Below, in pieces: positions 7,151 through 63,386 of a DNA stretch of 64,000 nt. Both the position numbers and the translations under genes were made by a program. The notes beneath the pieces were generated by a model. The model did not search any database. It worked only from the letters and a program-made list of their open reading frames with translations, and was not told where the DNA came from. The stretch spans positions 4,022 to 68,021 of the forward strand of contig JBAXYB010000004.1 in assembly GCA_037127585.1 (NCBI GenBank), given 5' to 3'. The DNA comes from Verrucomicrobiota bacterium (GTDB lineage Bacteria > Verrucomicrobiota > Verrucomicrobiia > Palsa-1439). How positions within the stretch are numbered: position 1 is the stretch's first letter; each line of letters begins with the position of its first letter.

Positions 7151-8908
7151 ATGACACCTAAATTATTCTCTGAACTCGGCCTATCGGCTGAACTGCTGAA
7201 AGCCATCGATAAACTCGGGTTCGAGCAGGCGTCGCCCATTCAGGCGGCAGCGATACCGGTGTTGATGCAGGGGCACGATATCGTGGGGCAATCGCAGACG
7301 GGCTCCGGCAAGACGGCGGCGTTTGCGGTGCCGGCGATTGAGAAGATCGACGCGACGGTGCGCACGGTGCAGGTGCTGATTCTGTGTCCGACGCGGGAAC
7401 TGGCGGTGCAGGTGTCGGAAGAGGTCCACAAGCTGGCGGAGTTCAAGCGCGGCGTCCGTGCGTTGCCGGTGTATGGCGGACAGTCGTACGAGCGACAGTT
7501 TCAGGGATTGAAACAGGGCGTGCAGATCGTGATCGGGACGCCGGGGCGCGTGATGGATCATATGCGGCGCGGGACTCTCCGTCTGGATGCGCTGAAGATG
7601 GTGATTCTCGACGAAGCCGATGTGATGTTGGACATGGGGTTTCGTGATGACATCGAGATTATTCTCAAGGGCACACCGGCGGAACGACAGACTGTTTTCT
7701 TTTCGGCGACGATGCCGCCGGCGATTCAGCAGTTGATCAAGAAGTACGCGCGCACGCCGCAGAACGTCCGCATCGAGGAGAAGACGATGACGGTGTCGAC
7801 GGTCGAGCAGATCTATTACGAGATCGACCGGCGCTTCAAAGTGGAATTGCTGACGCGGCTCATCGACATTCACGATTTCAAACTCGGCATCATCTTCTGC
7901 AACACGAAACGGACGGTGGACGACCTCGTCACGCACTTGAACGCACAGGGCTATTCAGCGGAGGGCTTGCACGGCGACATGAATCAGGCGGTGCGCGACC
8001 GGGTGATGAACAAGTTCCGCAAGTCGGGGCTCGAATTTCTCGTGGCCACCGACATCGCCGCGCGCGGCATCGACGTGGACGACGTTCAGGTAGTGTTCAA
8101 CTACGACTTGCCGTACGACTCGGAAGATTATCTCCACCGGATCGGTCGAACCGGCCGCGCGGGTCGGAGCGGACAGGCGATCGCGTTCGTGTCAGGCCGG
8201 GAAGTCTATGCGATCCAGCACATCGAACGGTTCACCCGCACGCGGATGAAGCGCGGCAAACCGCCGACGATCGAGGAAGTGGACGAAGCGCGCGCGAATG
8301 TGTTCCTGAACAAACTGCGCGTCACGTTGCAGAGCGGTAAATTCATCCGGCAAGATCACTTTATCGAGCGGCTCTTGGAAGAAGGTTTTACCACGACCGA
8401 CATCGCCTCGGCCTTGCTGCATCATCTGGCCGGCGGCGAAACTCCCGCCACACCAGCTCCCGGCAAACCCAGCTTGAAAAAAGACCGCCGGGAGGGCGAG
8501 GCTCCCGCCGAGCCGCGGCCCGTTACTAAACTCGCGTCTGCTCCGGCAGCCATCGTCAAACCAACTCCGCCGGCCTCCAAGCCGGTTCATCACCCGGCCA
8601 TCCCTCGCCCGCCGGCCGCGAGACCCAGCGACCCGCGCCCCGGTCAGGCACCGCCCCACAGCCGGCGGACGCCCGCCCACCAAACCCGGCTCTTCCTTAG
8701 TGTCGGCGAAGAAATGGGCATGACCCCCGGCCATGTCGTCGGCGCCATTCTCGGCGAAACTGGCTTGAACCCGGACGCCATCGGCACAGTGGATATCCGG
8801 GCCCGGCATCTGTTTGTGGACGTCGCCACCGAACACGCCGCGCTGGTGGTCAAGAAGCTCAATCGCACCCGCATCAAAGGCCATCCGCTGAAAGCTAAAT
8901 TGGCGTGA
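7151..8908 (+). CDS. deaD: DEAD-box ATP-dependent RNA helicase (DeaD/CsdA-like with a C-terminal DbpA-type RNA-binding domain)
   Basis: The Q-motif region, Walker A (GSGKT), DEAD, SAT and HRIGRTGRAG motifs are all present, followed by a C-terminal extension. Confidence 0.85.
   Translation: MTPKLFSELGLSAELLKAIDKLGFEQASPIQAAAIPVLMQGHDIVGQSQTGSGKTAAFAVPAIEKIDATVRTVQVLILCPTRELAVQVSEEVHKLAEFKRGVRALPVYGGQSYERQFQGLKQGVQIVIGTPGRVMDHMRRGTLRLDALKMVILDEADVMLDMGFRDDIEIILKGTPAERQTVFFSATMPPAIQQLIKKYARTPQNVRIEEKTMTVSTVEQIYYEIDRRFKVELLTRLIDIHDFKLGIIFCNTKRTVDDLVTHLNAQGYSAEGLHGDMNQAVRDRVMNKFRKSGLEFLVATDIAARGIDVDDVQVVFNYDLPYDSEDYLHRIGRTGRAGRSGQAIAFVSGREVYAIQHIERFTRTRMKRGKPPTIEEVDEARANVFLNKLRVTLQSGKFIRQDHFIERLLEEGFTTTDIASALLHHLAGGETPATPAPGKPSLKKDRREGEAPAEPRPVTKLASAPAAIVKPTPPASKPVHHPAIPRPPAARPSDPRPGQAPPHSRRTPAHQTRLFLSVGEEMGMTPGHVVGAILGETGLNPDAIGTVDIRARHLFVDVATEHAALVVKKLNRTRIKGHPLKAKLA
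8488..8518. repeat. family-A palindrome half-site (CCGGGAGGGCGAGGCTCCCGCCGAGCCGCGG) in-frame inside deaD
   Basis: 30 of 31 nt are identical to the left arm of the intergenic palindrome at 38802. It is translated as REGEAPAEPR in the DeaD C-terminal linker. Confidence 0.6.
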
Positions 8909-8967
8909 GCGGGCAAGTTGCGCGCTTGCTACCGTCTCCAGCCCTGTGGTAACGTCCGCCCCGAAAT

Positions 8968-9261
8968 TTGATGAAACCCAGTAAGAAAACCGCCAACCCC
9001 AACGAGCCGAGCTTCGAGCAAGCTGTCGAACGACTCGAAAAGATCGTCGCCGATATGGAGAGCGCGGAATTACCGTTGGAAGATGTTCTGAAACGCTACG
9101 AAGACGGCACGAGCCTCGTGCGGTTCTGTGCGCAGAAACTCGACGAGGCGGAGAAAAAGATCGAACTGTTGCAGAAGAAGGCCGACGGCTCGGTCACGCT
9201 GAAACCATTTGAACCGGAATCCCCGGCCGAAGACGACGACAAAGAAGCCAAGCTGTTTTAA
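8968..9261 (+). CDS. xseB: exodeoxyribonuclease VII small subunit
   Basis: SFEQAVERLEKIVADMESAELPLEDVLKRYEDGTSLVRFCAQKLDEAEKKIELL is the characteristic XseB helix pair. Confidence 0.8.
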   Translation: MMKPSKKTANPNEPSFEQAVERLEKIVADMESAELPLEDVLKRYEDGTSLVRFCAQKLDEAEKKIELLQKKADGSVTLKPFEPESPAEDDDKEAKLF

Positions 9262-9273
9262 GGAGAATGAACG

Positions 9274-16898: not shown

Positions 16899-16976
16899 GC
16901 GCGCAGTGTAGAAGAACCATTCCCGTTAGCAAAGCGCGTTTGTAGTGAGCCTGCAAAGCGGCACGGGTTTGGTGGT

Positions 16977-17039
16977 GTGGGAGCGGCGTCCCCGCCGCGA
17001 CCGGGTCGGCAAAAATCGCGGCGGGGACGCCGCTCCCAC
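16977..17039. repeat. REPIN: two identical 24-nt units (GTGGGAGCGGCGTCCCCGCCGCGA) in inverted orientation with a 15-nt spacer
   Basis: The doublet is a perfect inverted repeat at 16977-17000 and 17016-17039, lying in the divergent region between the hpn-like gene and metH. Confidence 0.6.
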
Positions 17040-17109
17040 AACGACTGTTGGTTCGTTACCTCCCTTGCCCAATGTCACCGCCGCTGCTATTGTCACCGCC
17101 GGCAACCCC

Positions 17110-20100
17110 ATGAGCACCGACCGCACTCAATTACTTTTTGACGCCCTAAACCAAAGCATTCTCGTGCTCGACGGCGCGATGGGAACGATGATCCAGAATC
17201 GCGACCTGACCGCCGCCGACTTCGGCGGACCGGCACTCGAAGGTTGCAACGAAAACCTCGTACTCACCCGCCCCGATGTCATTCGCGATATCCACCGGCA
17301 ATACTACGCCGCCGGCGCGCACATCGTCGAAACGAACACCTTCGGCGCGACGCCACTCGTGCTCGCGGAGTACGGTTTGCAGGACAAATGCCGGGAGATC
17401 AATGTCGCCGCCGCCCGGCTGGCTCGGGAAGCAGCCATCGAGTTCAACGGTTTCGTGGCCGGCTCAATCGGGCCAACGACAAAAGCCATCACCGTGACCG
17501 GCGGCGTGACGTTTCAGCAACTGGTTGAGAATTTCCATGCCCAAGCCCTCGGATTGATCGAAGGCGGCGCCGATCTGTTGCTCGTGGAAACTTGTCAGGA
17601 CACGCGCAACATCAAAGCCGCGCTCATTGGCATCGCCCAGACCGGCAGCAAGATTCCCGTGATGGTCTCCGGGACGATTGAGCCGATGGGCACGATGCTG
17701 GCCGGGCAGGCGGCGGAAGCGTTGGTCGCCTCGTTGCAGCATGTGGAACTGTTGGCCATCGGCTTGAACTGCGCGACCGGCCCGGAGTTCATGACCGATC
17801 ACATTCGGACCATTCATCAGATGACGAACGCGCGCGTGTCGTGTTACCCGAACGCCGGTCTGCCCAACGAGGAAGGTTTGTACCTCGAAACGCCAACCTC
17901 GCTCGCGACGGCGCTGGAGCGGTTCGTCAAGAACGGCTGGCTCAATATCATCGGCGGCTGCTGCGGGACGACACCGGCTCACATCAAAGCCATCGCGGAG
18001 ATGGTTGCCGGCAAGGAACCGCGCCGGCATCGCGGAGAACGGAAATCATGGTACAGCGGCATCGAATTGGTCGAAGCCAGCGACGACACCCGGCCGTTGA
18101 TCGTCGGCGAACGGACCAACGAAGTCGGCTCGCGCGCGTTCAAGCGACTCATCACGGAAGAAAAGTTCGAGGAAGCCAGCGAGATTGCTCGGGCGCAGGT
18201 CAAGCACGGCGCGCACATCATCGATATCAACCTCGAAAACACCGACCGGGACGAGTTGCTGGACATCGACCGGTTCTACGAGAAGGTCATTCACAAAGTC
18301 AAAGCGCCGATCATGATCGACTCGACCAACCCAAAGTCTGTCGAGCGCGCCCTCACCTATTGCCAAGGCAAGAGCATCATCAACTCGATCAACTTCGAGG
18401 ATGGCGAGGAGAAGTTTAACCACATCCTCCCCCTCGTACACCGGTACGGCGCCGCGGTGATCATCGGTTCGATCGACGAAGACAAATTGCAGGCGCAAGC
18501 CATCACCCGCGAACGCAAACTCGCCATCGCCCAACGCGCGCACAAGTATTGCATCGAACACGGCATCCCGGAAGAAGACCTCATTTTCGACCCGCTCGTT
18601 TTCCCCTGCGCGACTGGCGACGAGAATTATATTGGCAGCGCCGTCGAGACGATCGAAGGCGTGCGGCTCATCAAAGAAAACTTGCCGCGCTGCAAAACTG
18701 TCCTCGGCGTCAGCAACGTCAGCTTCGGTTTACCGGCAGCCGCCCGCGAAGTCATCAATTCAGTCTTCCTCTATCATTGTTCCCGTGCCGGCCTTGACCT
18801 CGCCATCGTCAACGCCGAGAAACTGGAACGTTACCCGAGCATCCCCGACGTCGAAAAGAAGCTCACGGAAGATTTACTCCACAACTATCCACCCGCCGGC
18901 ATGGACGCGCCAAAGGATTACCGGCAGCAGACCAAGGAACAACGCGCCGCGATCAACCAGCATCACATCGCCGCCATCAGCGAACACTTCCGCGGCGCGG
19001 AGAGTCGCGTAAAGAAGAAGACCTCCGATTTGCCGCTCGATGGCCGGCTCGCCAATTACATTCTCGAAGGCACGAAGGAAGGGCTCATCCCCGACCTTGA
19101 CCTGAAACGCGCAGAAGGCGCGACCCCGCTCGACATCATCAACGGCCCGCTCATGGACGGCATGAAAGAAGTCGGCCGGTTGTTCAACGCCAACGAACTG
19201 ATCGTCGCCGAAGTCCTCCAATCCGCCGAAGCGATGAAGGCCGCCGTCAACCACCTCGAACAGTTCATGGAAAAGAAGTCGGACTCGACCAAGGGCAAAG
19301 TCCTGCTCGCCACCGTCAAAGGCGACGTGCATGACATTGGCAAGAACCTCGTCGAAATCATTCTCTCGAACAACGGCTTCCACGTCATCAATCTCGGCAT
19401 CAAAGTTCCGCCCGAAGATTTGATCAAGGCGTACAAGGAACACCAGCCCGACGCCATCGGCTTGAGTGGCTTGCTCGTCAAGAGCGCCCAGCAAATGGTC
19501 ATCACCGCCGGTGACCTCAAACAAGCCGGCATCACCGTCCCGATGCTCGTCGGCGGCGCAGCGTTGAGCGACAAATTCACCCGCAACCGGATTGCGCCGA
19601 GCTACGAACAAGTCGTCATCTACTGCAAAGACGCCATGACCGGCTTGGCGATGATGAATAACCTGATGGACCCGGCCCAGCGCGAAAAAGTCGTCGAAGC
19701 CCACAAGCCGGTCGCCGTCGCTGTTGTCGAACCCGAAGCGGAGGAATTCCCCGAAACCACGCACCGCAGCATCCGCATCCACGAGGAGCTGCCATTACCC
19801 GTGCCCTACCCCGACCGGAAAGTGCGCGACGTTCCCCAGCTCCGCGAGATTTGGGAATACATCAATCCGCAGATGCTCTACGTCCGGCATCTCGGCTTCA
19901 AAACCAACTACGAGAAAGCCCTCGCCGCTCGTGACCCAAAAGCGCTGGAGCTTTACAACCTCGTCGAAGAAGTCAAAGTCGAAGCCGCGAAGTTCATGAA
20001 AGTGAAAGCCGTCTGGCAATTCTTCGAGGCGGAGGTGGATGGTAACAGCATCAAGCTGTTTTCGCCGCCGCGCCCACTCGCCGCCGCGCCCATTCATGTG

Positions 20101-20589
20101 TTTAACTTCCACCGGCAACGCAAACCTGACGGGCTGTGTTTGGCCGACTACATCAATGCCCCACATGATTCCGTGGCGATGTTCGTCGTCGGTGCCGGCA
20201 CCGGCATCCGGCAACGCGCCGAGGAATACAAAGCGCAAGGTGAATACCTCAAGTCCCACGCGCTCCAAGCCCTCGCCATCGAGACCGCTGAAGGTTGTGC
20301 TGAGTGGTTGCACCGGCGCATCCGGGAAGACTGGGGTTTCCCAGACCCCGCCGACATGACGATGCTCAACCGGTTCACGACCAAATACCGGGGCCGCCGC
20401 TACAGCTTCGGCTACCCGGCCTGCCCCGCGCTCGAAGACCAAGCCGGCATCTGGAAGCTGCTCAAGCCGGAAGAGATTGGAGTTCAACTCACGGAAGGTT
20501 TCATGATGGACCCGGAAGCATCGGTAAGCGCTTTGGTATTCCACCACACCGATTGCGCGTACTTTGGGGTTGGCGATACCGGAGAGTAG
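17110..20589 (+). CDS. metH: cobalamin-dependent methionine synthase
   Basis: The 1160-aa protein from MSTDRTQLLFDALNQSILVLDGAMGTMIQ carries Hcy-binding, pterin-binding, B12-binding (DVHDIGKN) and AdoMet reactivation domains. Confidence 0.9.
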   Translation: MSTDRTQLLFDALNQSILVLDGAMGTMIQNRDLTAADFGGPALEGCNENLVLTRPDVIRDIHRQYYAAGAHIVETNTFGATPLVLAEYGLQDKCREINVAAARLAREAAIEFNGFVAGSIGPTTKAITVTGGVTFQQLVENFHAQALGLIEGGADLLLVETCQDTRNIKAALIGIAQTGSKIPVMVSGTIEPMGTMLAGQAAEALVASLQHVELLAIGLNCATGPEFMTDHIRTIHQMTNARVSCYPNAGLPNEEGLYLETPTSLATALERFVKNGWLNIIGGCCGTTPAHIKAIAEMVAGKEPRRHRGERKSWYSGIELVEASDDTRPLIVGERTNEVGSRAFKRLITEEKFEEASEIARAQVKHGAHIIDINLENTDRDELLDIDRFYEKVIHKVKAPIMIDSTNPKSVERALTYCQGKSIINSINFEDGEEKFNHILPLVHRYGAAVIIGSIDEDKLQAQAITRERKLAIAQRAHKYCIEHGIPEEDLIFDPLVFPCATGDENYIGSAVETIEGVRLIKENLPRCKTVLGVSNVSFGLPAAAREVINSVFLYHCSRAGLDLAIVNAEKLERYPSIPDVEKKLTEDLLHNYPPAGMDAPKDYRQQTKEQRAAINQHHIAAISEHFRGAESRVKKKTSDLPLDGRLANYILEGTKEGLIPDLDLKRAEGATPLDIINGPLMDGMKEVGRLFNANELIVAEVLQSAEAMKAAVNHLEQFMEKKSDSTKGKVLLATVKGDVHDIGKNLVEIILSNNGFHVINLGIKVPPEDLIKAYKEHQPDAIGLSGLLVKSAQQMVITAGDLKQAGITVPMLVGGAALSDKFTRNRIAPSYEQVVIYCKDAMTGLAMMNNLMDPAQREKVVEAHKPVAVAVVEPEAEEFPETTHRSIRIHEELPLPVPYPDRKVRDVPQLREIWEYINPQMLYVRHLGFKTNYEKALAARDPKALELYNLVEEVKVEAAKFMKVKAVWQFFEAEVDGNSIKLFSPPRPLAAAPIHVFNFHRQRKPDGLCLADYINAPHDSVAMFVVGAGTGIRQRAEEYKAQGEYLKSHALQALAIETAEGCAEWLHRRIREDWGFPDPADMTMLNRFTTKYRGRRYSFGYPACPALEDQAGIWKLLKPEEIGVQLTEGFMMDPEASVSALVFHHTDCAYFGVGDTGE

Positions 20590-22028: not shown

Positions 22029-22139
22029 GTGTCCTAATCTGGACCGACGTTGTAGCCGAAGCGTGAGCTTCGGGCGTCAGCATGCGAATCCCGAAGCTCA
22101 CGCTTCGGCTACAGGAAAGGCTGGGAGAAATTAGGACAC
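22029..22139. repeat. nested REPIN: two identical units (TGTAGCCGAAGCGTGAGCTTCGGG) inverted, inside an outer GTGTCCTAAT/ATTAGGACAC inverted repeat
   Basis: The inner arms lie at 22051-22074 and 22090-22113, and the outer arms at 22029-22038 and 22130-22139. Confidence 0.6.
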
Positions 22140-32217: not shown

Positions 32218-32367
32218 ATTGAGACAGCGATTGGAGAAGGCGGCAGTTTGTAGGGCGCGATGCCCCGTGTCGTTTCGGAGTATCGCGCCGCGAGGAGAGT
32301 CCAGCAATGATCACGGCGCGATACCTAAACGACAGGCATCGCGCCCTACAATTAGCGCGCTTGCCGC

Positions 32368-38746: not shown

Positions 38747-38801
38747 GATGAAACTGCGCAGCCCGGCTAAGAACCCATCCCAAAACGTCCCGATCCATTT
38801 T

Positions 38802-38879
38802 CCGGGAGGGCGAGGCTCCCGCCGAGCCGTGGGGTGACGTGGCTCGGCGGGAGCCTCGCCCTCCCCCGGTTTTGGGATC
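38802..38879. repeat. family-A palindrome (CCGGGAGGGCGAGGCTCCCGCCGAGCCG - 10-nt loop - reverse complement)
   Basis: The arms are near-perfect 28-nt sequences, and the flanks (cccaaaac...gatcc / ggttttgggatcgg) are themselves partly complementary. Confidence 0.65.
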
Positions 38880-39011
38880 GGCTCTAAGCCGTCGCCACGA
38901 TGCGTTCCATCGCAGCTTCTTGCTGCTCGATGGATTCAACAAGCCGAAACTGGGTCCGCGCCCGGTCGAGGTTGTGCCCGTCCCGATGCGTCTTGAAATA
39001 CGTGTCACCGT

Positions 39012-39953
39012 TCAAGAAATCCGCCAGAAGCGAATCCCGATTTCAAAAGTGATCAGTTTACCGGAAAAGACCAGCTGCCGGCGTTCAGCCGGCGTGAGAA
39101 ACTCACCGGCCGTGCTGAGATAGCCCCGCACGAGTGCCTCGAACAACGGAAATTGCATTTTGACCTTTGTCAGATCACGTTCGTCTTCCTTGCTCGGGCT
39201 GGTGGTGGTGCGAACCATGTCGCCGAAATCATAGAGCACCAACCCCGGCATCACCGTGTCGAGATCAATGACGCAGATCCCCTTGCCCGTCGCATCGTCG
39301 AGCATGACGTTGTTGAATTTCGTGTCGTTGTGCGTGATGCGTTCCGGCAACCCGGCTTCAATCAAGACCGGCGTGATCGCCTTCCGCCGAAGGGCAAATT
39401 CGATTTCGGGTTTCGCCAGCGCGGCGCGATTGGCCACGTCCGCCGCGATGGCCGTCTCCAACGCCGCGAACCGTTTCGGCGTGTGGTGGAAATCGGGAAT
39501 GGTGTCGTGCAACCGCGGCGCCGGTAAGTCCGCGAGCTGCTGTTGAAACTGGCCAAAAGCGCGCGCGGCTTGGTACGCTTGCTGGGGTTGCTCAACCGCA
39601 TCGTAGGTGTGAGCGCGGTCGATGAATTGGTACGCGCGCCAGTGGTTGCCGGCTTCGTCGCAATAAAAGATCTGCCCGGCGCGTGCCGGCACGAGGGTGA
39701 GCGCCCGGTCGCTGCCGTTGGTGAGTTTAGTGCGCAGATGATCGGTGACGCGCTGGATGTTTTCCATCACGGCCACCGGGTTCTTAAAGACGGCGTGATT
39801 GATGCGCTGGAGAATGTACTGCCCACCGGCACAGGTCACGCGGTAGGTGTCGTTGATGTGGCCGCTGCCGTACGGTTCGGATGTGACCATCGCACCGGCA
39901 AACTGAAATTGCCGGCTGATGGCGTGAACATCGTGGGGTGGATTCTTGTGCAT
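39012..39953 (-). CDS. phosphotransferase-family protein (APH/choline-kinase-like fold)
   Basis: Brenner-like motif HNDTKFNNVML and a D-x-D region (IDLDTV) are present. The substrate is unknown. Confidence 0.5.
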   Translation of the reverse strand: MHKNPPHDVHAISRQFQFAGAMVTSEPYGSGHINDTYRVTCAGGQYILQRINHAVFKNPVAVMENIQRVTDHLRTKLTNGSDRALTLVPARAGQIFYCDEAGNHWRAYQFIDRAHTYDAVEQPQQAYQAARAFGQFQQQLADLPAPRLHDTIPDFHHTPKRFAALETAIAADVANRAALAKPEIEFALRRKAITPVLIEAGLPERITHNDTKFNNVMLDDATGKGICVIDLDTVMPGLVLYDFGDMVRTTTSPSKEDERDLTKVKMQFPLFEALVRGYLSTAGEFLTPAERRQLVFSGKLITFEIGIRFWRIS

Positions 39954-41907: not shown

Positions 41908-42615
41908 TCACGCCTCCGGGAAGCTGACGATCACGCGGCCTTTTTTCCGGACGAGAAGCCGGTCGAAGACCAGCATCCGCAGACTTTTCGCCACAGTGAC
42001 CGGCGGACTGACCGGCTCGACGCGGCCCTGCCGGATCGATGCAAAGATTGCCGGCACCGTCGGCGCGGCATCCACCCGCGTAAAATGCTGGCCAAACATC
42101 CACAACGCGTGCGCGTCCGAATTAGCAATCAGCGGTTTGCCGTGTTGCGCGGCGAACCGGCGGGCGCGGTTGTTGAACGCGTCAAACCAAGTGAAATGCA
42201 TCCCGGCAATCTCGATGGCGTCGAAGAGATCCAGGTTGCGCTCCAGTTCCCGCCCGAGACAACAGCCCTTCGGATAAAACGGATGCGGTGCGATCACGAG
42301 CAATTCCGCCCCCCGTTCGCGCCGGTAGGCCCGCAAATCGGCATACGTCTTCAGCCGGTCAACATCCCGCGGCGGAATATTGAAGAGCAGCACATCGCGC
42401 CCGGCGAAACTCCACTCAACCGCCTGGATCAGCAATAAACCTTTGGCGCGCGCGTAATCGAAAACGCGTTCGTCATCGAACACTTTTCGGTGCAGCGTGA
42501 TTGCGATCGCAGCAAACTCCAACGCCACGGCCTTGTCGATTAACTGCGTCGCCGTGTACGGCAAGCCGTCGAACGGGTCGTCGCCCGTGTGCATATGGAG
42601 ATCGATCTTAATCAT
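41908..42615 (-). CDS. PHP-domain (polymerase/histidinol-phosphatase-like) metal-dependent phosphoesterase
   Basis: MIKIDLHMHT carries the HxH motif at the N-terminus, and downstream His/Asp residues (NSDAH) are present. Confidence 0.7.
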   Translation of the reverse strand: MIKIDLHMHTGDDPFDGLPYTATQLIDKAVALEFAAIAITLHRKVFDDERVFDYARAKGLLLIQAVEWSFAGRDVLLFNIPPRDVDRLKTYADLRAYRRERGAELLVIAPHPFYPKGCCLGRELERNLDLFDAIEIAGMHFTWFDAFNNRARRFAAQHGKPLIANSDAHALWMFGQHFTRVDAAPTVPAIFASIRQGRVEPVSPPVTVAKSLRMLVFDRLLVRKKGRVIVSFPEA

Positions 42616-45602: not shown

Positions 45603-48421
45603 GCCACGGTCTCCTTGATGTGCTGGAACGCACCGAGACGTTCGTCGCCGGTCTTCCGCTCGGTCAGTTTCAGGACGCCGTTGCCACAGATGGGACGGAA
45701 ATCACAATTCCGGCAATTCTCCACCGTAGCGTGTTGCGCGAAGACGCCGTCCCGAATCATGTCGGACGCCGTCTGCAAGAGCCCGGTCAACTCCGCGCGC
45801 CGGTCGTCGAGCGCGGCGTGCGAGAATTTCACCGCGCGGTAACCACCGCGCATCGTGAAGTAGAGGTAACTCGCGTCGTCAACCGTCACGCCCGGCAGGA
45901 GTTGTTCGGCGGCCAGCAGATAGAGCGGCAACTGCAACGTCTCGCCGGCGGCCAGCGAATTATTCTTTAAACCGCGCGGCAGCTTGCCGGCTTTGTAGTC
46001 GAGAACGCGCGCGTGGTGGCCGGTGGTCGAGAAATCAATCCGGTCGATCTTGCCGCGGAGTCGGACCGGCGGCGCGACGACCAGATCTTTGAATTCCTTC
46101 TCGAATTCGCGGGGCTGCCACTCGTCACTTAGCCGGCGCTGTTCGCGGGCCACAAACGCGGTGACTTCGTGCCGGATGATCTCCTTTTTGATTTCCCAAA
46201 CCGTCGGATAGCCGGTGACTCCGGTGCGGGCGAACTCTTGGAATTGTTCATCAATCACCGCCAACGTTCCCCGCCGGTAATAGTCCTCCAAAATTGCGTG
46301 GTACAGCGACCCGAGATCGAGCGCGTCGATGACGATCGTGGCCTCTGGTTCTTCCCACTTCTCGACGCCGAGCACGTGCTGCTGGAAATAGGCGAACGGA
46401 CATTGGAAGAACTTTTCCAGCGAGGTCGCACTGATGACGAGTTTCTCCAGACCGAACCGGTCGCGGAGGAGTTTGAGCGCGGCGGGGTCGGCAATGACGC
46501 CATCATACCGGGTCAGGCGCGACTCACGCCACCGGGTTTTCTCCGCCGCAACACCTCCGGCTACCACGGGCAATGTTTGCGCGAGATATTGGTCGCGGTC
46601 GGCGGCGTGGTGTAAGGCGACGAGGTCGAACTCGCGTTCGTCCACAGCTTCGACATCGTCCCGGAACGCAGCGAGCGGCACGACTTGACACGGCATCGAT
46701 TTGAAATCCGTGGCGCCGGTCGCTTCGAGCAGTAACGACGACGGGACGCGGGGTCGAGCCGTACCGGCATCGAGGCGCGGGAAACTCAGGATGAGTTGGT
46801 CGCGCGCGACGCGACAGGTCAGATCGAACAGTAAGCGCTCTTCGTCGTGGCCGTGGCGTTTTAAAGGGAGCGCGGCGCTGAGTTGTTGGCGCTCGTCGTC
46901 GAGCAAGAGTGGGTCTTCGCGGATGACGCGAGGGAAACTCTTTTCGACAAGTCCGAGCAACACGACAAAATCAAAGCTCAAGCCGCGCGCGCCCATGACA
47001 TCGCTGACAAAGACGTTACCGGCTTGGAATCGTTCGGTTTGGTCGGTCGCGGCTTCGAGCGCTTTTTGACTGAACTCGGTGAACAACGGTAAGTCCACCG
47101 GTAGTTCCAGCGCGTCGAGTTCCGTGAGAGCTTCGATGGCGCCGATGACTTTGGCGTGGGTGCCGCCGAGTTGGCGGAAAGCGTTGAGCGTGGTTGTAAC
47201 CAACTCGCGCCAGGTGTTGTGCCGGGGTAACGCTTCGGTGGCGGCAAAGAGGTCGTCGATAAACCGGCGGAGTGATTCGTCGCCTTGGAGCCGGTCGTGC
47301 CATTGGGATTTTCCGCTGACGATCCCGAGGCGGACGGTCTGGGCGTCCCAGTGGGAATTCGGGCCGATGTGGCAGGCGAGTTCCATAACGGCGGCACGAC
47401 TGAAGTCAGACCGGATGGCGGCGAGGAGGAGCAACAGCAATTTGGCGTCGTGCTGTTCGGTGAGCGGCCGGCCACCACGGAAGAAGGCGCGGATGCCGAG
47501 TTGCGGAAGTGTGTCGCGGAGGATGGCGTCGTATTGGTCGCGCGACCGGCAGAGGATGGCGCAATCGTTGAAGGTCTTGCCGGGATTGGCGCGGAGGTAG
47601 GCGAAGATGGCGCGGACGGCTTCGCGGACTTCGGCGGTTTCGCCGGGGCAGGAGACGACTTGAGGGGGCGAAACGGTGAATGGGGGAGCGGGCGAAACGA
47701 CTTGATAGCCGAGCGATTTGAACCACGCGAGGAGCGGTTGGGAGTAGTCGTCGTGTTCGGTGGCGGGGAAGAAAATGGCGGACGGAGCGAGCGCGGCGAT
47801 GAATTGCTTCTGCGTCGCATTGAGGTCGTAGAAGCCGTAGAGGAAAAGTTCGCAGTTCTGGGTTCGCGGTTCGGGGTTGAGGAAGTTGTGCTCGGCGAGC
47901 CAGGCCCGGTAAGTCGTGTAGGCGGCGGCGAGCTCACGAAGCTTGGGGGTTGTGCCGGCGAGTTTGGTCAGGCCGGCTTCTTGGAGATCGGTGAAGGTGT
48001 TGCGCAACGCGGTGGCGAAGCCGGTCGTATGGCTGACCGGCGCAAAGTACCCATCCGCCGGTAAGGCGTGGGCGAGTTGCCGGCAGAGGAGTTCGAGGGC
48101 CAATGGCGGTGGGACTGTCGCCGGGCGCATCAGGTCATTGAGGGTTTGGAAGTCGACGTTGACGTGGGGGGCGAGTTTGCGGCGGAGGGCGAGACCGAGT
48201 AAATGCGTCGGGACGATGACGGTGACTGGCGCGAGTGGGCGCCGGGCTTGCAGGCGCGCCGCGAGCGCGGCTTCGAGCGTGGGCTGAAATGCGCCGAGAT
48301 GGATTTGGCGTGGCGTCGGCGCGGAAAAGTTGTTAGTCCTAGACACGTTGATGAAAATTTTGCCGAAGTATATCACACGGCAGTTGGCGACCACGCTGTT
48401 TTTCACGCTCGGCGTGTTCAC
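45599..48421 (-). CDS. addB: AddB-like PD-(D/E)xK nuclease subunit with a C-terminal Fe-S cysteine cluster
   Basis: The C-terminus (...ENCRNCDFRPICG) is typical of AddB. The 4-nt ATGA overlap with addA suggests translational coupling. The true N-terminus is uncertain. Confidence 0.65.
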   Translation of the reverse strand: MNTPSVKNSVVANCRVIYFGKIFINVSRTNNFSAPTPRQIHLGAFQPTLEAALAARLQARRPLAPVTVIVPTHLLGLALRRKLAPHVNVDFQTLNDLMRPATVPPPLALELLCRQLAHALPADGYFAPVSHTTGFATALRNTFTDLQEAGLTKLAGTTPKLRELAAAYTTYRAWLAEHNFLNPEPRTQNCELFLYGFYDLNATQKQFIAALAPSAIFFPATEHDDYSQPLLAWFKSLGYQVVSPAPPFTVSPPQVVSCPGETAEVREAVRAIFAYLRANPGKTFNDCAILCRSRDQYDAILRDTLPQLGIRAFFRGGRPLTEQHDAKLLLLLLAAIRSDFSRAAVMELACHIGPNSHWDAQTVRLGIVSGKSQWHDRLQGDESLRRFIDDLFAATEALPRHNTWRELVTTTLNAFRQLGGTHAKVIGAIEALTELDALELPVDLPLFTEFSQKALEAATDQTERFQAGNVFVSDVMGARGLSFDFVVLLGLVEKSFPRVIREDPLLLDDERQQLSAALPLKRHGHDEERLLFDLTCRVARDQLILSFPRLDAGTARPRVPSSLLLEATGATDFKSMPCQVVPLAAFRDDVEAVDEREFDLVALHHAADRDQYLAQTLPVVAGGVAAEKTRWRESRLTRYDGVIADPAALKLLRDRFGLEKLVISATSLEKFFQCPFAYFQQHVLGVEKWEEPEATIVIDALDLGSLYHAILEDYYRRGTLAVIDEQFQEFARTGVTGYPTVWEIKKEIIRHEVTAFVAREQRRLSDEWQPREFEKEFKDLVVAPPVRLRGKIDRIDFSTTGHHARVLDYKAGKLPRGLKNNSLAAGETLQLPLYLLAAEQLLPGVTVDDASYLYFTMRGGYRAVKFSHAALDDRRAELTGLLQTASDMIRDGVFAQHATVENCRNCDFRPICGNGVLKLTERKTGDERLGAFQHIKETVA

Positions 48422-53397: not shown

Positions 53398-53415
53398 TCG
53401 CAACAGGATCGCCAT

Positions 53416-53490
53416 TGTAGCCGCGAGCCTGCTCGCGGCCCCACGGAATGCGCCAGTCCACAGTGAACCGCGAGCAGGCTCGCGGCTACA
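53416..53490. repeat. REPIN: two identical units (TGTAGCCGCGAGCCTGCTCGCGG) in inverted orientation, between convergent genes
   Basis: The arms are perfect 23-nt sequences at 53416-53438 and 53468-53490. Each arm is itself a small hairpin (CCGCGAGC..GCTCGCGG). Confidence 0.65.
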
Positions 53491-53513
53491 AAACCGAATT
53501 TCAAAACGCGCTC

Positions 53514-56500
53514 TCAGGCTTTTTCGGGCCGGTTGCTGTCCCAGACGATCGCCTTCTGCGGGGCGCTCTTCCGTTGCGAATCACCGCCCCCGCCCCACTG
53601 TCGCTGCCCAGCCGGCTTGGCGGTCATCTTCTCGGTATCCACCTTCAACCACACCGTTTCCTCGCCCGCCAACGTTTCGAGCGCGTCCACCAGTTCGGCC
53701 GACGGCGTCACCGCGAATTGATCGTGCGGTTCGAGAAACAAGAGTTGGCCATCCGGGTACATGAAGCAAAACATCACCGGCACGCCGCCGGTATGGGCGT
53801 TCAACAGATCCCGAATCTGCAGCAACGTAGCCTCGTTGGCCGCCGTGGTTGAAAGCCGGATGTGCATGGCCTTGGTGAACCGCTTGGGGACGTCGGTCAA
53901 TGGGATAACTTGATCCGCAAATATTTTCGGTTTGTCCTCGCGCAGATTCACCACGCCGGTAACAAAGACGGGCGCGTCCGCTTTCAAATGGATCGCACAC
54001 TTCGCATACGCCTCCGGGAAGACGAGCACCTCCACCGCGCCATCGAGATCTTCGAGCGTCAGGATCGCCATCGGCTTGCCTTGCTTGGTCAACCGCGGCT
54101 GGAGTTTACTCACAAGACCGCCGATGCGCGTGGCTTGGCCGTCCTGCAATTGAAGCAACTGCGTCGTCGACGCGAGTTCGTACCGGCGCAGAATCTCCGC
54201 GTACTGACTCAACGGATGGCCGGTCACGTAGAACCCGAGCAATTCTTTTTCGAAGCCCAACATCTCACTCTGCGTCCACTCCACCGCTGGCGGCTGACCG
54301 GCGGTTTGCTTGCGGGCATTGACCGGCGCGACGTCAAAGAGCGCGGCCTGCCCGCGATCCTTGTCGCGCTGGACAGTGGCGGCGCGATTGATTTGGTAAT
54401 CGATCTCGGCGAACACCTGGGCGCGCGCCGGGTTGATGGCGTCGAATGCGCCGCATTTGATGAGACACTCGATGACCTTGCGATTGACGACATGCATGTC
54501 GATCCGGTCACAGTAATTGGCAAGCGAGGTGAACGGCCCGCCCTTCCCGCGCACATCGATGATGTTCTGCACGGCGATCTCGCCCACGTTTTTAATCGCG
54601 GCCATGCCGAAACGGATTGCCTTAGTAGCGCGGGCGTCCCGCCCGTCTCCCCCAGCCGACGACACGGGCGGGACGCCCGCGCTACTGGTTACGGTGAACC
54701 GCACGCCGCTCTCATTCACATCCGGCGGCAAGACTTCGATCTTCATGTGCCGGCATTCGTTGATGAAGAGCTGAATCTTCTCCGTGTTCGCCAGTTCGTT
54801 CGATAACGACGCCGCCATGAACTCGACCGGGTAGTTCGCCTTCAAGTACGCCGTCTGATACGCGACCACGGCGTAGGCGGCACTATGCGATTTGTTAAAT
54901 CCGTAACCGGCAAACTTCGCCAGCGTATCGAAAATTCCTTCGGCTTTGGCTTTCGGGATTTTATGCGTGTCCGCGCAGCCTTTGATGAACGTGGCGCGCT
55001 GCTTCTCCATCTCCTCCAGCTTTTTCTTCCCCATCGCGCGCCGCAAAATATCCGCGCCCCCGAGCGTGTACCCGGCCAGCGCGTTCGCCGCCTGCATGAC
55101 CTGCTCCTGGTACACAAAAATGCCATACGTCTCTTTGAGAATCGTCTCCAGCGCCGGGTGGTCGTAGACAACTTTCACCTTGCCATGTTTGCGAGCAATG
55201 TAGTCGTCGATGAACTGCATCGGCCCCGGCCGGTAGAGCGCGATGAGCGCGTTGATGACCTCAATCGAATCAATCCCAATGCGCCGGCACAAGTCGCGCA
55301 TCCCGCCGGATTCCAATTGAAACACGCCGATGGTGTTCGCCTTCATCAGCAGGTCGAACGTCTTTTGATCGTTGAGCGGAATCTTCTCCATGTCAACGCG
55401 CGTCCCGGTGGTCTGCTCAATCAGATCGAGGCAATCCTTGATCACCGTCAACGTCTTCAACCCGAGGAAATCCATCTTCAACACGCCGAGATCGCCGAGC
55501 GGATTCATCGAGTACTGCGTGACGATGTCAGTCTCATTCGTGCCGGTCGTCAGCGGCACGATATTCGTCAACGGCTCCGCGCCGATGACCACGCCGGCCG
55601 CGTGCGTGGATGCGTTGCGCGCGATGCCTTCGAGCGCCTTGCCGTTGTCGATGATGCGCCGGACGATGTCCTCCGTATTGTAGGCCGTCTTGAGCTCGGG
55701 GTTCATCTCCAACGCCTTCTCCAGCGTCATACCGAGATCCGGCGGAATCATCTTTGCGATCCGGTCACACTCGGTATAACCCAGCCCCAGCACACGCCCC
55801 ACATCCCGCACCACCATCTTCGCGCCGAGCGTACCGAACGTGATGATCTGCGCGACGTGATCCGACCCGTACTTCTGCCGGACATACTCAATGACTTCCG
55901 GTCGGCGGTTGTAACAAAAGTCCATGTCGATATCCGGCGGCGACACGCGTTCGGGATTGAGAAACCGCTCAAAGAACAACCCATACCGGAGCGGGTCGAT
56001 ATCCGTGATCTTCAACGCATACGCCACCAGACTACCGGCCGCACTGCCGCGCCCCGGCCCCACCGGGATGCCATGCGTCCGCGCGAAATTCACAAAATCC
56101 CAGACGATCAAGAAATAGCTCGTGAACCCCTGCTTCGCGATGACATCCAGCTCGCGTTCGACCCGCGCGTGGATTTCGTTCGACGGCGAGCTGCCATACC
56201 GCTCGCGCACCCCGGCTTCGGTGAGTTGCCGGAGATACTGGTTCCGCTCGACACCAACCGGCGGGTGATAGACCGGAAAACGCAGCTTGCCGAACTCGAA
56301 TTTGAAACTGCATTTCTCCGCGACTTCGAGCGTGTTCGTGACCGCCTCCGGCACCTCGGCGAACAGCGTGTGCATTTCCTCCGGCGACCGCAGGAAAAAC
56401 TGCTCCGGCGCATACCGCATCCGCTTCTCGTCGCTGACCAACGCCTGCGTCTGCAAACAGATCAAACAATCGTGCGCTTCCCAATCACCGCGTTTGACAT

Positions 56501-57134
56501 AATGCACGTCGTTCGTGGCGACGGTCGCCAACTTGAATTCCTTCGCCCACTTGAGCAACTGCCGGTTGGCGACTTGCTGTTCCGGTATGCCGTGGTTTTG
56601 CAGTTCGATGTAAAAATCCCCCGGCGCAAAAATCTGCCGGTAATCATCCAGCGCCGCTTTCGCCTGTTCAACCTGCTCGTTGATGATCTTGTTCGGCACC
56701 TCGCCCTTGAGACACGAAGTGAAGCCGATCAACCCTTTCGAGTGTTGCGCGAGAATTTCCTTATCGATGCGCGGCTTGTAGTAGAAGCCTTCGAGATGCG
56801 CCATCGTGACCAGCTTGATGAGATTCTTGTACCCGGTCTCATCCTTCGCCAGCAGCACCAAATGATACGCCGCATCTCGAGCACTCCCGGCCTTCTTCTC
56901 CAACCGCGACCCCGGCGCGATATACGTCTCGCACCCGATGATTGGTTTCAGTCCCTTCGCTGATGCGGCCTGATAGAACTCGACCGCCCCGAACATCCCG
57001 CCATGATCCGTCATCGCAATTGCCGGCATCCCGTACTCGTGGGCTTTGGCGATCACATCGTCCACACGGCACGCCCCGTCGAGCATGCTGTACTCGGTGT
57101 GCAAATGCAGATGGACAAAGTCGGAGTGTTTCAT
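53514..57134 (-). CDS. dnaE: DNA polymerase III alpha subunit
   Basis: The N-terminal PHP domain (FVHLHLHTEYSMLDGA), the polymerase core, HhH and OB domains are present in a 1206-aa protein. Confidence 0.9.
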   Translation of the reverse strand: MKHSDFVHLHLHTEYSMLDGACRVDDVIAKAHEYGMPAIAMTDHGGMFGAVEFYQAASAKGLKPIIGCETYIAPGSRLEKKAGSARDAAYHLVLLAKDETGYKNLIKLVTMAHLEGFYYKPRIDKEILAQHSKGLIGFTSCLKGEVPNKIINEQVEQAKAALDDYRQIFAPGDFYIELQNHGIPEQQVANRQLLKWAKEFKLATVATNDVHYVKRGDWEAHDCLICLQTQALVSDEKRMRYAPEQFFLRSPEEMHTLFAEVPEAVTNTLEVAEKCSFKFEFGKLRFPVYHPPVGVERNQYLRQLTEAGVRERYGSSPSNEIHARVERELDVIAKQGFTSYFLIVWDFVNFARTHGIPVGPGRGSAAGSLVAYALKITDIDPLRYGLFFERFLNPERVSPPDIDMDFCYNRRPEVIEYVRQKYGSDHVAQIITFGTLGAKMVVRDVGRVLGLGYTECDRIAKMIPPDLGMTLEKALEMNPELKTAYNTEDIVRRIIDNGKALEGIARNASTHAAGVVIGAEPLTNIVPLTTGTNETDIVTQYSMNPLGDLGVLKMDFLGLKTLTVIKDCLDLIEQTTGTRVDMEKIPLNDQKTFDLLMKANTIGVFQLESGGMRDLCRRIGIDSIEVINALIALYRPGPMQFIDDYIARKHGKVKVVYDHPALETILKETYGIFVYQEQVMQAANALAGYTLGGADILRRAMGKKKLEEMEKQRATFIKGCADTHKIPKAKAEGIFDTLAKFAGYGFNKSHSAAYAVVAYQTAYLKANYPVEFMAASLSNELANTEKIQLFINECRHMKIEVLPPDVNESGVRFTVTSSAGVPPVSSAGGDGRDARATKAIRFGMAAIKNVGEIAVQNIIDVRGKGGPFTSLANYCDRIDMHVVNRKVIECLIKCGAFDAINPARAQVFAEIDYQINRAATVQRDKDRGQAALFDVAPVNARKQTAGQPPAVEWTQSEMLGFEKELLGFYVTGHPLSQYAEILRRYELASTTQLLQLQDGQATRIGGLVSKLQPRLTKQGKPMAILTLEDLDGAVEVLVFPEAYAKCAIHLKADAPVFVTGVVNLREDKPKIFADQVIPLTDVPKRFTKAMHIRLSTTAANEATLLQIRDLLNAHTGGVPVMFCFMYPDGQLLFLEPHDQFAVTPSAELVDALETLAGEETVWLKVDTEKMTAKPAGQRQWGGGGDSQRKSAPQKAIVWDSNRPEKA
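54625..54685. repeat. REPIN (two identical GTAGCGCGGGCGTCCCGCCCG units inverted, 19-nt spacer) embedded in-frame within dnaE
   Basis: The doublet is a perfect inverted repeat, translated as approximately SSAGVPPVSSAGGDGRDARATK between the conserved PPDVNESGVRF and AIRFGMAAIKNVGE segments of DnaE. Confidence 0.65.
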
Positions 57135-59531: not shown

Positions 59532-59565
59532 TTCATTCGCGACCGGTCGCGATTACAAATCGCTC

Positions 59566-60152: not shown

Positions 60153-60167
60153 GGTATTGTTTGTGGC

Positions 60168-61492: not shown

Positions 61493-61504
61493 TAATTTTC
61501 ACTA

Positions 61505-62047
61505 ATGCCGACCCTGCAACATATCCGCCAGCGATTGACCCGGTTTCTCCGACACGGCGAGTCCGGGCAAGCGTTTATTGAGTTAGCCTTCGTCGTCATG
61601 ATGCTGGCGGTCTTGCTGTTTGGACTCATCGACTTTGGCCGCTTTCTTTACGAACGCCAGATCGTGGTGAACCTGTCTCGCGAAGGCGCGAACCTCGTTT
61701 TGCGGAACACCGCGGTGACCAATGCCGCCACCGCGGTCATGAACTCAGCCAGTCCCTTGAAGATGGCCACGCAGGGCCGGTTGATCATGAGCACAGTCAC
61801 GAATAGCAACGGGGTTCGGCGCGTCACCAGTCAGTATGCGACCGGCGGATTGGCCAGTGGCTCGGCCAGCAAACTCGGGGTTCTCAACGCTGTCGCCACC
61901 ATGCCGGCAACAACCACGGTTATTCCGGCCGCTGGCAAAGTGTTATACGTCACGGAAGTCTATTACAAATTCACGCCCATCACGCCGGTCGGGAAACTGC
62001 TCCAACTAGCCGCCCCATCCAATCTCTATGACGTGGCGTATTTCTAA
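61505..62047 (+). CDS. TadE-like protein
   Basis: GESGQAFIELAFVVMMLAVLLFGLIDFGRFLYER is the TadE-like N-terminal helix. Confidence 0.65.
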   Translation: MPTLQHIRQRLTRFLRHGESGQAFIELAFVVMMLAVLLFGLIDFGRFLYERQIVVNLSREGANLVLRNTAVTNAATAVMNSASPLKMATQGRLIMSTVTNSNGVRRVTSQYATGGLASGSASKLGVLNAVATMPATTTVIPAAGKVLYVTEVYYKFTPITPVGKLLQLAAPSNLYDVAYF

Positions 62048-62063
62048 TTCCTGGAGACAACCA

Positions 62064-63314
62064 ATGAAACTCACCCGCCCCCGCCCCGCTCGCAGCTCAC
62101 GCCAGGACGGCCAATCGATGGTGATGTTCGTGTTTTTTCTAGTGGTCTTGATCTTGTTCACGGGCCTCGGCATCGACCTCGGGTTCGCCTACATCACCAA
62201 AGCCAATCTCTCAAAAGCCGTTGACGCCGCTTGTTTGGAAGGGATGCTCAACGCCAATCAAGGCACTGTCACCGCGACGGCGATTGCCCAAAGCGTCTTC
62301 GCCGCCAATTACGGCCGCCCCGGCCGCGATACCGGGACCGTGACGCCGAACATCGTCATGAGTTTCAGCCCGCTCGGCCACCGGCTCGTCACCGTCGATG
62401 CGACGGCCCAGATCAACACCTTTTTCATCCGCATCTTACCGACCTGGAAACGCCTCAGCGTCAAAGCCAACGCCCAAGCCCAGCAACGCCGGCTCATCAT
62501 GTCACTGGTGCTGGATCGTTCGGGGTCGATGATTAATGACCGTGGTGCTAATGTTCTCCCGCAGGCAGTCACCAATTTCGTCGGCTATTTCGATGATGCA
62601 AACGATTACGTCTCCATGAACAGTTTCTCGACGTGGGGACGAACGGATGTGACGATCCGTCAGAACTTCAAATCCTCCATCACCGCGACTGCTAACGTTT
62701 GGATGGCGAACTTGAATGCAAACTTTAGTGGCAATACCTGCTCCGAGCAAGGGTTCACAAATGGACTGGCCCAAAACCAAAGCATCGTTGTCGCTCCCGG
62801 TGACGATGTCATCAAAGCGATTATCTTCTTCACCGATGGTTTGGCAAACGGGTTTAAGTACACGCTCAATTGTGGACCGAGAAACATTTCCAATTCGAAT
62901 GGTGGGAGACCAACGATCACTGACCCACTCACCGGAGCAGTGAATAGTAACGGCTGCACCGTTCCTTCCACAATCCCGTCGATCGACCCGTCGTACACCG
63001 GGAAGGCAAACATCAACACCGTGAGTTGCGGCGATATGCATGATGAAGCCGAAGCTCGCGCTGTGGCACTTGCCAGACAGGCGCGGGCACTTGGAAACAT
63101 CGTTTATTGCGTTGGTCTGGGGAATGGTTTTTCGGAATGCTCACGGCCGGCCCTCAATCCCGACTTTCTTAAGGACATGGCCAATACCACTGACAGTCCG
63201 CACTACGACCCAACTCAGCCCGTCGGCCTCTCCCTCGTCGCCGACGACCCCAGCGACGTCCAACCCCTCTTCGACCAGATTCGCGCCGACATTCTGTTGC
63301 GCCTCACGCAATAA
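62064..63314 (+). CDS. Tad-pilus-associated von Willebrand factor A domain protein (TadG-like)
   Basis: The N-terminal TadG-like segment (GQSMVMFVFFLVVLILFTGLGIDLG) is followed by a vWA MIDAS motif, LVLDRSGSM. Confidence 0.65.
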   Translation: MKLTRPRPARSSRQDGQSMVMFVFFLVVLILFTGLGIDLGFAYITKANLSKAVDAACLEGMLNANQGTVTATAIAQSVFAANYGRPGRDTGTVTPNIVMSFSPLGHRLVTVDATAQINTFFIRILPTWKRLSVKANAQAQQRRLIMSLVLDRSGSMINDRGANVLPQAVTNFVGYFDDANDYVSMNSFSTWGRTDVTIRQNFKSSITATANVWMANLNANFSGNTCSEQGFTNGLAQNQSIVVAPGDDVIKAIIFFTDGLANGFKYTLNCGPRNISNSNGGRPTITDPLTGAVNSNGCTVPSTIPSIDPSYTGKANINTVSCGDMHDEAEARAVALARQARALGNIVYCVGLGNGFSECSRPALNPDFLKDMANTTDSPHYDPTQPVGLSLVADDPSDVQPLFDQIRADILLRLTQ

Positions 63315-63334
63315 CAGTCATCCTCGCCGTTGAT

Positions 63335-63386
63335 GGGAGGGCGAGCCTCCCGGCGAGCCGCGGCTCGACTGGAACCTCGCCCTCCC
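63335..63386. repeat. family-A palindrome (partly deleted copy) downstream of the TadG-like gene
   Basis: GGGAGGGCGAGCCTCCCGGCGAGCCGCGGCTCG...CCTCGCCCTCCC. Confidence 0.5.

Follow-up and report, generated by a model that had tools for sequence, protein, structure and literature searches.

Repetitive extragenic palindromic (REP) sequences occur as singles, inverted dimers and clusters, and their tail-to-tail dimers have variable spacers (PMC3733652). In-frame REPs have been documented in recBCD, uvrABCD, dnaE, dnaE2, pseudouridine synthase and RNA helicase genes, with examples in the verrucomicrobium Opitutus terrae (Di Nocera et al. 2013, PMC3733652), and even within the genes of REP-associated tyrosine transposases, or RAYTs (Quentin et al. 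2018, PMC6006769). The literature on RAYTs and on REPINs (REP doublets forming hairpins) presents these repeats as lineage-specific and vertically inherited. The closest described design is that of the class 3 REP-like repeats, which flank class 3 HUH-Y1 (TnpA-Y1) genes and are given as CCGAG-CCGC-GA-CC-GTAA-GG-GA-GCGG for Legionella and Solibacter and as CACGAG-CCG-GAA-GC-GTGA-GC-GA-CGG for Planctopirus (PMC6006769, Table S1). Class 3 hosts include Planctomycetes, Acidobacteria and Proteobacteria, with ~600 copies in Solibacter, and one published repeat is nearly identical in the gammaproteobacterium Legionella and the acidobacterium Solibacter (PMC6006769). Here we describe a 25-nt arm, GGGAGGGCGAGGCTCCCGCCGAGCC, present in a 64,000-nt stretch of a Verrucomicrobiota genome (contig JBAXYB010000004.1, positions 4,022 to 68,021; hereafter the window, 59.6% G+C), where it stands both between genes and inside deaD and addA. 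Its unusual feature is that the same 25-mer recurs across phyla with no copying enzyme found in the loci examined. The data are best described by a REP-type dispersed repeat family that is copied in trans by a sequence-specific single-strand DNA enzyme, most likely an HUH-Y1 protein of the RAYT kind, class 3, a reading to which we assign a probability of roughly 0.6.

The arm and its distribution

The window was searched on both strands with the 26-mer core GGGAGGGCGAGGCTCCCGCCGAGCCG, tolerating up to 3 mismatches. Seven copies of the arm were found at four sites: 8490-8515 (+, 0 mismatches), 38804-38829 (+, 0), 38840-38865 (−, 1), 45519-45544 (+, 3), 45554-45579 (−, 3), 63335-63360 (+, 2) and 63361-63386 (−, 3). 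The core matched nowhere in 100 shuffles of the window, and the chance expectation for the seven arms is 0. These are the four places named in a preliminary description of the window, which was correct in its observation: the repeat family is real, it occurs both intergenically and inside genuine coding sequence, and it is a second palindromic family without a GTAG prefix, the base preceding the arm being C or T.

The preliminary description took the repeated unit to be 78 nt long, with a full copy at 38802-38879. The unit that recurs is the arm of 25-27 nt, and the bases of 38802-38879 beyond the arms are unique to that copy. A sensitive BLAST search with the 78-nt sequence returned nothing in the window outside the four sites, which have only the arms in common. 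At 38804, a left arm (38804-38828, +) and a right inverted arm (38841-38865, −) form a perfect tail-to-tail pair, 100% complementary over 25 nt, around a 12-nt spacer (38829-38840, GTGGGGTGACGT) that is absent from the other copies. The pair at 63335 was thought to be partly deleted. Both of its arms are full length (63335-63359, +, and 63362-63386, −, the latter being the most diverged copy, with 3 mismatches), and the spacer alone is short, at 2 nt. Both intergenic pairs lie in spacers between convergent genes, at the genes' 3' ends: the first between 37370-38746 (+, DAO oxidoreductase) and 39012-39953 (−, APH kinase), the second between 62028-63314 (+, TadE/G-like) and 63396-63938 (−).

One genome per species was scanned for the 25-mer, with G or C allowed at positions 12 and 19. 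At least 119 stretches in genomes and at least 120 in metagenomes carry the arm, and the figures given below are drawn from the matches listed. Arm-bearing loci (designated L with a number) were examined in a set of 140 and later of 254 (1.69 Mb). The conserved unit comprises the 25-nt arm, a preceding pyrimidine (C or T in 56 of 63 copies, with GTAG absent) and usually a following G. A census of 149 elements contains 74 single arms, 60 simple tail-to-tail pairs and some arrays; in one pair count, 64 tail-to-tail pairs have their GGGAG ends outward and their GAGCC ends inward. Pair spacers range from 2 to 79 nt and have no common sequence. Within a clade, spacer lengths tend to be similar (about 20, 28 or 31-32 nt; 12, 11 and 2 nt in the window), and their sequence is unconstrained even between two pairs 2.7 kb apart on one contig (L133). 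Complementarity between the flanks of a pair generally extends over the first 1-3 bases at most. Neighboring genes are unrelated: upon clustering of the open reading frames (ORFs) within 1.2 kb of arms, no family was found near arms in more than 9 of the 254 loci.

Some arms form same-strand arrays closed by one inverted arm, as at L049 103-220, L163 3437-3566, L197 16-157 and L114 3170-3308. These arrays have short fixed linkers and periods of 27/33, 35, 39 and 30 nt, respectively. Because the periods of the L049 array are multiples of three, this array could encode a repetitive peptide (…EGEAPAEPRE…). Some pairs are nested within larger local palindromes, a situation seen for ~16% of pairs versus 0.9% of shuffled flank pairs. 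Around the 38804 pair of the window, the outer palindrome spans 38764-38891, with arms at 38764-38786 and 38869-38891 that are 87% complementary; L036, L079, L112, L061 and L093 provide further examples. The outer palindromes are locus-specific and often contain A/T runs. They might reflect insertion into pre-existing hairpins or local selection for a longer stem.

Most of the listed loci belong to Planctomycetota, of which all major orders are represented, and Verrucomicrobiota come second. According to the submitters' taxonomy, other arm-bearing loci belong to Acidobacteriota, Binatia, Nitrospirales, Ignavibacteria, Hydrogenedentota, Chthonomonas, Alcaligenaceae and Alphaproteobacteria. Among these bins from outside the Planctomycetes-Verrucomicrobia-Chlamydiae (PVC) group, several have 2-3 arm-bearing contigs of 50-220 kb. 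In L036, the one such case that was checked, the nearest named homologs of the QueA protein encoded beside the pair come from Acidobacteria and Terriglobia. For the window itself, which is from a metagenome-assembled genome, a protein search returned identical DeaD and AddA proteins and showed all their close homologs to be verrucomicrobial. The local G+C content around arms ranges from 45 to 73%. With the same 25-mer in Verrucomicrobiota, Planctomycetota and Acidobacteriota, the arm does not display the species or genus specificity of REPs. No arm match was found in 72,556 plasmids, and a search of 2.9 million viral contigs gave 15 stretches, which makes the arm rare there. A plasmid or viral vehicle for its transfer was considered and rejected on these counts; the two L133 pairs frame no obvious mobile gene. 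In the full-text literature, searches with the sequence strings returned only chance matches in unrelated papers, and neither the strings nor the encoded peptides occur in the supplements of PMC3733652 and PMC6006769.

Fold of the arm and relation to known repeats

The arm is laid out as a foot (GGGAG), a stem strand (GGC), GA, a second stem strand (GGC), a loop (TCC followed by C or T), GCC, GA and GCC. It can adopt the fold .....(((..(((....)))..))), in which an unpaired 5' foot precedes two 3-bp stems that are separated by a tandem G-A/A-G internal loop, the second stem being capped by a TCCY loop. Paired arms can also form a long inter-arm hairpin, which for the 38804 pair has an energy of −39.9 kcal/mol as DNA (z = −9.3). 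Compensatory changes identify which of these structures is under selection. Pair 11-20 changes from G-C to A-T in 22 arms, pair 12-19 changes from G-C to C-G in 21 arms, and changes from CG to TA are also seen at pair 8-23. Positions 9-10 and 21-22, which form the G-A/G-A loop, are nearly invariant. At positions 12 and 19, all four combinations were permitted by the search pattern; the two that pair occur 232 and 21 times, versus one occurrence of C/C and none of G/G.

Among 56 distinct arms, 93.5% of cells are paired under the intra-arm fold. Compensatory double-change cells number 22, versus 3.9 in column shuffles, and none of 500 shuffles reaches 22. The covariation signal collapses in a control with slid partners. 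Arms with double changes are mostly partnered by a canonical arm, an arrangement that breaks the inter-arm duplex at two places and keeps the intra-arm fold. The compensatory changes thus support the single arm as the selected object. An Rfam scan of the whole window gave no match at the gathering score. A role as an intrinsic terminator was considered and rejected, as a GC-rich hairpin with a directly following T run was found at neither intergenic copy; no terminator-like site was called at either, and only TTTT follows the 38804 pair.

In its plan, the arm resembles the class 3 repeats. Both have a 5-nt unpaired foot ending in GAG, a stem of 3-4 bp, a GA/GA internal loop, a second stem of 2-3 bp and a tetraloop, and both lack a GT[AG]G foot, fold weakly in energetic terms, may reach high copy numbers and have overlapping hosts. 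A structural search of the window for the class 3 plan, in which an unpaired foot leads into a hairpin that contains a GA/GA internal loop and ends in a tetraloop, returned only the GGGAG family. The differences lie in the foot, which is GGGA(G) here and CnGA(G) in class 3, so that only GAG is shared with CCGAG, CAGAG and ACGAG; in the stem and loop sequences; in the presence of the window's family in Verrucomicrobiota; and in the finding of no class 3 gene beside any copy by motif search of the 254 loci. On this comparison, we file the arm as a putative new REP family of class 3 design that departs from the CnGA foot. Repeats close to the published class 3 sequences are present as tail-to-tail pairs in planctomycete loci L070 (5758-5831, CCGTACCGCGACCGTCAGGGAGCGG) and L005 (7672-7734, GGCGAGCCGGGAGCGTGAGCGACCGG). 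Both loci also carry the GGGAG family, which shows that related families coexist in one genome.

The likeness to the GTAG-type REPs, bacterial interspersed mosaic elements and REPINs that are associated with RAYTs (PMC3733652; Bertels and Rainey 2011, PMC3116915) is one of organization. Like those repeats, the arm is a short (25 nt, within the 20-40 nt of classical REPs) imperfect stem-loop, dispersed mostly outside genes as singles, inverted dimers and clusters with variable tail-to-tail spacers. Sites downstream of genes or between convergent genes are shared, as are in-frame copies, which in the case of those repeats occur in recBCD-type, dnaE, pseudouridine synthase and RNA helicase genes. 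The 5' GT[AG]G foot of classical REPs (GTAG or GTGG) is replaced by GGGAG, however, the arm is not lineage-specific, and its spacer is not conserved, as would be expected if a REPIN were copied whole. Rickettsia palindromic elements (RPEs) apart, that conservation would mark a REPIN. Rickettsia palindromic elements are likewise in-frame palindromic inserts in still-functional genes (cited in PMC3733652) but are about 100-150 nt long, AT-rich, restricted to Rickettsia and copied as whole units. The terminal inverted repeats around TIRYT genes (Di Nocera et al. 2013) are G-rich, moderately abundant as dimers and clusters, present in Acidobacteria among others and associated with RAYT-like genes, but their published common motif, GGGGWSAS, does not match GGGAGGGC.

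Copies within genes and the gain of copies

The two genes that contain arms in the window are those named previously. Pfam matches identify 42612-45602 (−) as an AddA-type UvrD helicase-nuclease, adjoined by its AddB-type partner at 45599-48421 (−), and 7151-8908 (+) as a DEAD-box helicase with DeaD_dimer and DbpA domains. The addA copy can be compared directly with relatives. All 60 inspected AddA homologs start with M-x(0-7)-[IV]D..AR..A..LDTTFFVEAAAGTGKT, the four closest with MID, and the DNA of three relatives (L120, L121 and L122, with 73-75% protein identity) reads ...AAGGAGACCGTGGCATGA|TCGAC... without an insert. The window's addA has exactly 81 extra bases, in frame, between ATGA and TCGA (45518-45598, −), directly after the start ATG at 45602-45600. 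On the minus strand, this segment consists of 19 unique nucleotides (45598-45580), an arm, an 11-nt spacer, an arm and 1 nt, and it encodes SPERESLGGRASRRAMPPAAQPELRPP. The arms are the variants GGGAGGGCGAGCCTCCCGGCGAGCC (45555-45579, −, codons 8-16) and GGGAGGGCGAAGCTCCGGCTGAGCC (45519-45543, +, codons 20-28). The 19 bases, GTCCTGAACGCGAGTCGTT, encode SPERES; they are absent from the relatives and unique in the window and in all loci. The junction, ATGA|TCGA, shows no target duplication.

The repeat segment of addA is almost certainly translated, as judged from its sequence context. A Shine-Dalgarno-like AAGGAG and the ATGA overlap of the addB stop with the addA start are conserved with the relatives. 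The preliminary description had raised an alternative start downstream of the repeat, but no ATG, GTG or TTG occurs between the repeat and the conserved LDTTFFVEAAAGTGKT motif. Because the upstream signals are kept and no later start codon is available, translation should include the distal arm at the least and, most likely, the full set of 27 extra residues. In the mRNA, the hairpin begins ~20 nt past the AUG, and in the centroid fold the ribosome-binding site stays free. In the window's AddA, the first 27 codons would count as repeat-derived.

In deaD, a single arm (8488-8515, +; core 8490-8514) is identical at 28 of 28 positions to 38802-38829. The earlier comparison of 8488-8518 with 38802-38832 is borne out, with 30 of 31 bases identical, 28 of them consecutive, and a translation of RREGEAPAEPRP in the DeaD frame. 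Because of the 28-base identity, the deaD arm is considered to have a common origin with the intergenic copy. It encodes residues 447-455, REGEAPAEP, in the linker between the DeaD_dimer and DbpA domains, so that ~9 codons of the window's DeaD are repeat-derived. The comparison of DeaD tails that had been proposed shows a Pro/Ala-rich stretch in all relatives, variable in length and sequence, and REGEAPAEP in none. The preliminary description also spoke of a translated motif that recurs in different proteins. The deaD and addA copies are read in different frames, and no single peptide therefore recurs within the window.

Copies inside genes of other genomes were called with a crude test, namely a stop-free frame with coding-like G+C at third codon positions on both sides. 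Of 149 elements, 24 lie inside ORFs and ~84% outside. Pfam confirms MnmE, a PMT_2 glycosyltransferase, an RluA-type pseudouridine synthase, a DAO oxidoreductase and a fucosidase as host genes, and an arm is also present in the tail of a giant Calx-beta protein. In three more ORFs (an SNF2 helicase, a creatininase and a CHASE2 cyclase), the Pfam match lies only downstream of the repeat, and the true start may follow the repeat. Genes make use of every one of the arm's six frames, and a stop codon occurs in none of them; insertions of 27, 63 or 81 nt thus leave the reading frame open. Single arms in genes are oriented sense in 4 cases and antisense in 8. The in-gene copies that were checked occupy linkers, loops or termini.

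Their rarity in genes, together with these positions, is the pattern expected from the survival of tolerated in-frame insertions. Such insertions would persist where the protein tolerates the added residues, as at the N-terminus of AddA and in the disordered DeaD linker. The copies in coding sequence are therefore best seen as tolerated passengers and not as functional protein modules. They had been taken to set this family apart from typical REPs, but in-frame REPs are documented (PMC3733652, PMC6006769), and the present copies are an instance of this known behavior, in genes for repair, replication and RNA helicases, and not a new one. The further suggestion that such repeats are not being purged from coding DNA was overstated, given that only ~24 of 149 elements are in ORFs and that those checked are in linkers, loops or termini. 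For annotation, the finding means that such repeats can create false or real N-terminal extensions in many PVC genomes.

Copies have been gained relative to relatives, as shown by addA and by an intergenic locus in Acidobacteriota. The queA-nuoA spacer of L036 has a pair, whereas the corresponding DNA of L140, a relative with 83% identity, has none. Relatives of the window's genome, represented by 47 kb of DNA, showed no arm. These empty sites in relatives indicate that copies were gained at new places. The L036 locus also has a transposase gene of the IS701 family (5946-7160, −), at a distance of 2.8 kb from the pair; its ends are unlike the arm, and its proximity is taken as coincidence.

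Origin of the copies

In the preferred reading, a sequence-specific single-strand DNA enzyme acting in trans would make the copies and keep them uniform. An HUH-Y1 nuclease/transposase of the RAYT kind, with class 3 as the best subtype, would read the foot and the hairpin. Pairs would arise by insertion of arms beside existing arms or by copying of dimers. If this is correct, the class 3 HUH-Y1 enzymes gain a candidate substrate family.

Several observations weigh against this reading. Regular-expression motifs revealed no HUH-Y1 gene in the window or in the ORFs of the 254 loci (1.69 Mb), although this is a weak test, as only ~1% of copies would be expected to have one beside them. The foot, GGGAG, is neither the classical GT[AG]G nor the CnGA of class 3. 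REPs and RAYTs are usually pictured as lineage-specific and inherited vertically, which an identical 25-mer in several phyla does not match. The single arm has a folding energy of −4.7 kcal/mol, no better than that of shuffles, and because energy alone is weak the case for the single arm rests on covariation. The linker DNA of deaD is not alignable with that of a relative with 84% identity, so no empty site can be given for this copy. Lastly, the 19 unique bases of the addA segment may not have come with the insertion but belong to an N-terminal extension that predates it.

Related searches for an associated gene gave similar results. In a motif search, no ORF of the examined loci contains the class 3 motifs NHVH and YV[VI]xEQ, and guilt-by-association clustering of the ORFs within 1.2 kb of arms yielded no recurrent family. 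Genes located between arm pairs that are 250-2500 nt apart are ordinary-looking; the one in L002, judged from sequence alone, is presumably of the glyoxalase type.

That the arm is a REP kept identical across Verrucomicrobiota, Planctomycetota and Acidobacteriota, and possibly Proteobacteria, Nitrospirota, Armatimonadota and others, is a proposal we make only tentatively, and it may well prove incorrect. Two explanations could account for such identity: a horizontally moving HUH-Y1 system, or a conserved factor of the host that recognizes the GGGAG foot together with the GA/GA hairpin. If true, it would contradict the view of REP and REPIN populations as lineage-specific and only vertically inherited. 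Soil and freshwater bacteria would then have a very widespread repeat system, so far undescribed, from which short peptide insertions in housekeeping proteins also arise. One 25-mer across phyla affords a tractable test of horizontal REP movement versus a conserved reading protein.

An alternative to copying by a dedicated enzyme is a host-selected site, in which a conserved host protein would bind the RNA or DNA hairpin, for example to protect mRNA 3' ends, to terminate transcription or to organize the chromosome, with copying secondary or absent. The invariance of the arm across phyla and in backgrounds of 45-73% G+C is consistent with such a site, as is the intra-arm covariation, which denotes a selected structure. 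The location of both intergenic copies of the window at convergent 3' ends, the ~16% of pairs within larger local palindromes and the fact that no transposase turned up in the motif searches point in the same direction. However, the arm has no Rfam match, neither intergenic copy resembles a terminator, and single arms in genes take both orientations (4 sense, 8 antisense). Close relatives do without copies at the same loci, and copies in coding regions are hard to reconcile with a site-specific role. We regard a host-selected site as a serious rival, though clearly less likely than the preferred reading.

Still less probable is a miniature inverted-repeat transposable element (MITE), whose terminal inverted repeats would be the arms and which would be cut and pasted by the DDE transposase of a full-length insertion sequence. 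Two 25-nt inverted arms, dispersed copies with unrelated flanks and presence/absence differences among relatives all suit a MITE, but the details do not. There is no target-site duplication: the bases next to the element, Y at its left end and R at its right, are complementary rather than directly repeated, and the addA junction shows no duplication. The interior is conserved in neither sequence nor length, even within one genome, and about half of the sites are a single arm. Terminal inverted repeats do not require covariation within an arm, and no full-length element with arm ends was found in 1.69 Mb. A chance or convergent origin of the coding copies, as matches within biased Pro/Ala/Glu-rich linkers, is excluded: the DeaD linker is indeed Pro/Ala-rich and hypervariable in all relatives, but deaD and the intergenic copy share 28 consecutive identical bases, no match arose in 100 shuffles, both the peptide and its DNA are absent from relatives, the addA copy is a full inverted pair that relatives lack, and the reading frame of the arm differs from protein to protein.

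The window also contains hairpin repeats of other families. Inside dnaE (53514-57134, −; DnaE by Pfam), a GTAG-type hairpin pair at 54624-54686 (−, AGTAGCGCGGGCGTCCCGCCCG...) adds ~21 residues (TSSAGVPPVSSAGGDGRDARAT) in frame. This genuine insert falls within the HHH_6 domain, flanked by ...RFTV and KAIRFGMAAIK, and the Pfam match extends over 109 residues, compared with 89 positions of the profile. Within the longest metH ORF (16945-20589), a perfect 25-nt hairpin pair (TGTGGGAGCGGCGTCCCCGCCGCGA) is located at 16976-17040 (+). Because the first Pfam domain begins at residue 73, this pair lies upstream of the likely start, M56 (MSTDRTQLLF...), and is probably in the 5' untranslated region and not coding. 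Three more perfect GTAG-type pairs, each with a different stem (TGTAGCCGAAGCGTGAGCTTCGGG, TTGTAGGGCGCGATGCC and TTGTAGCCGCGAGCCTGCTCGCGG), are found at 22051-22113, 32248-32351 and 53415-53491, which brings the number of distinct REP-like families in the 64-kb window to at least six.

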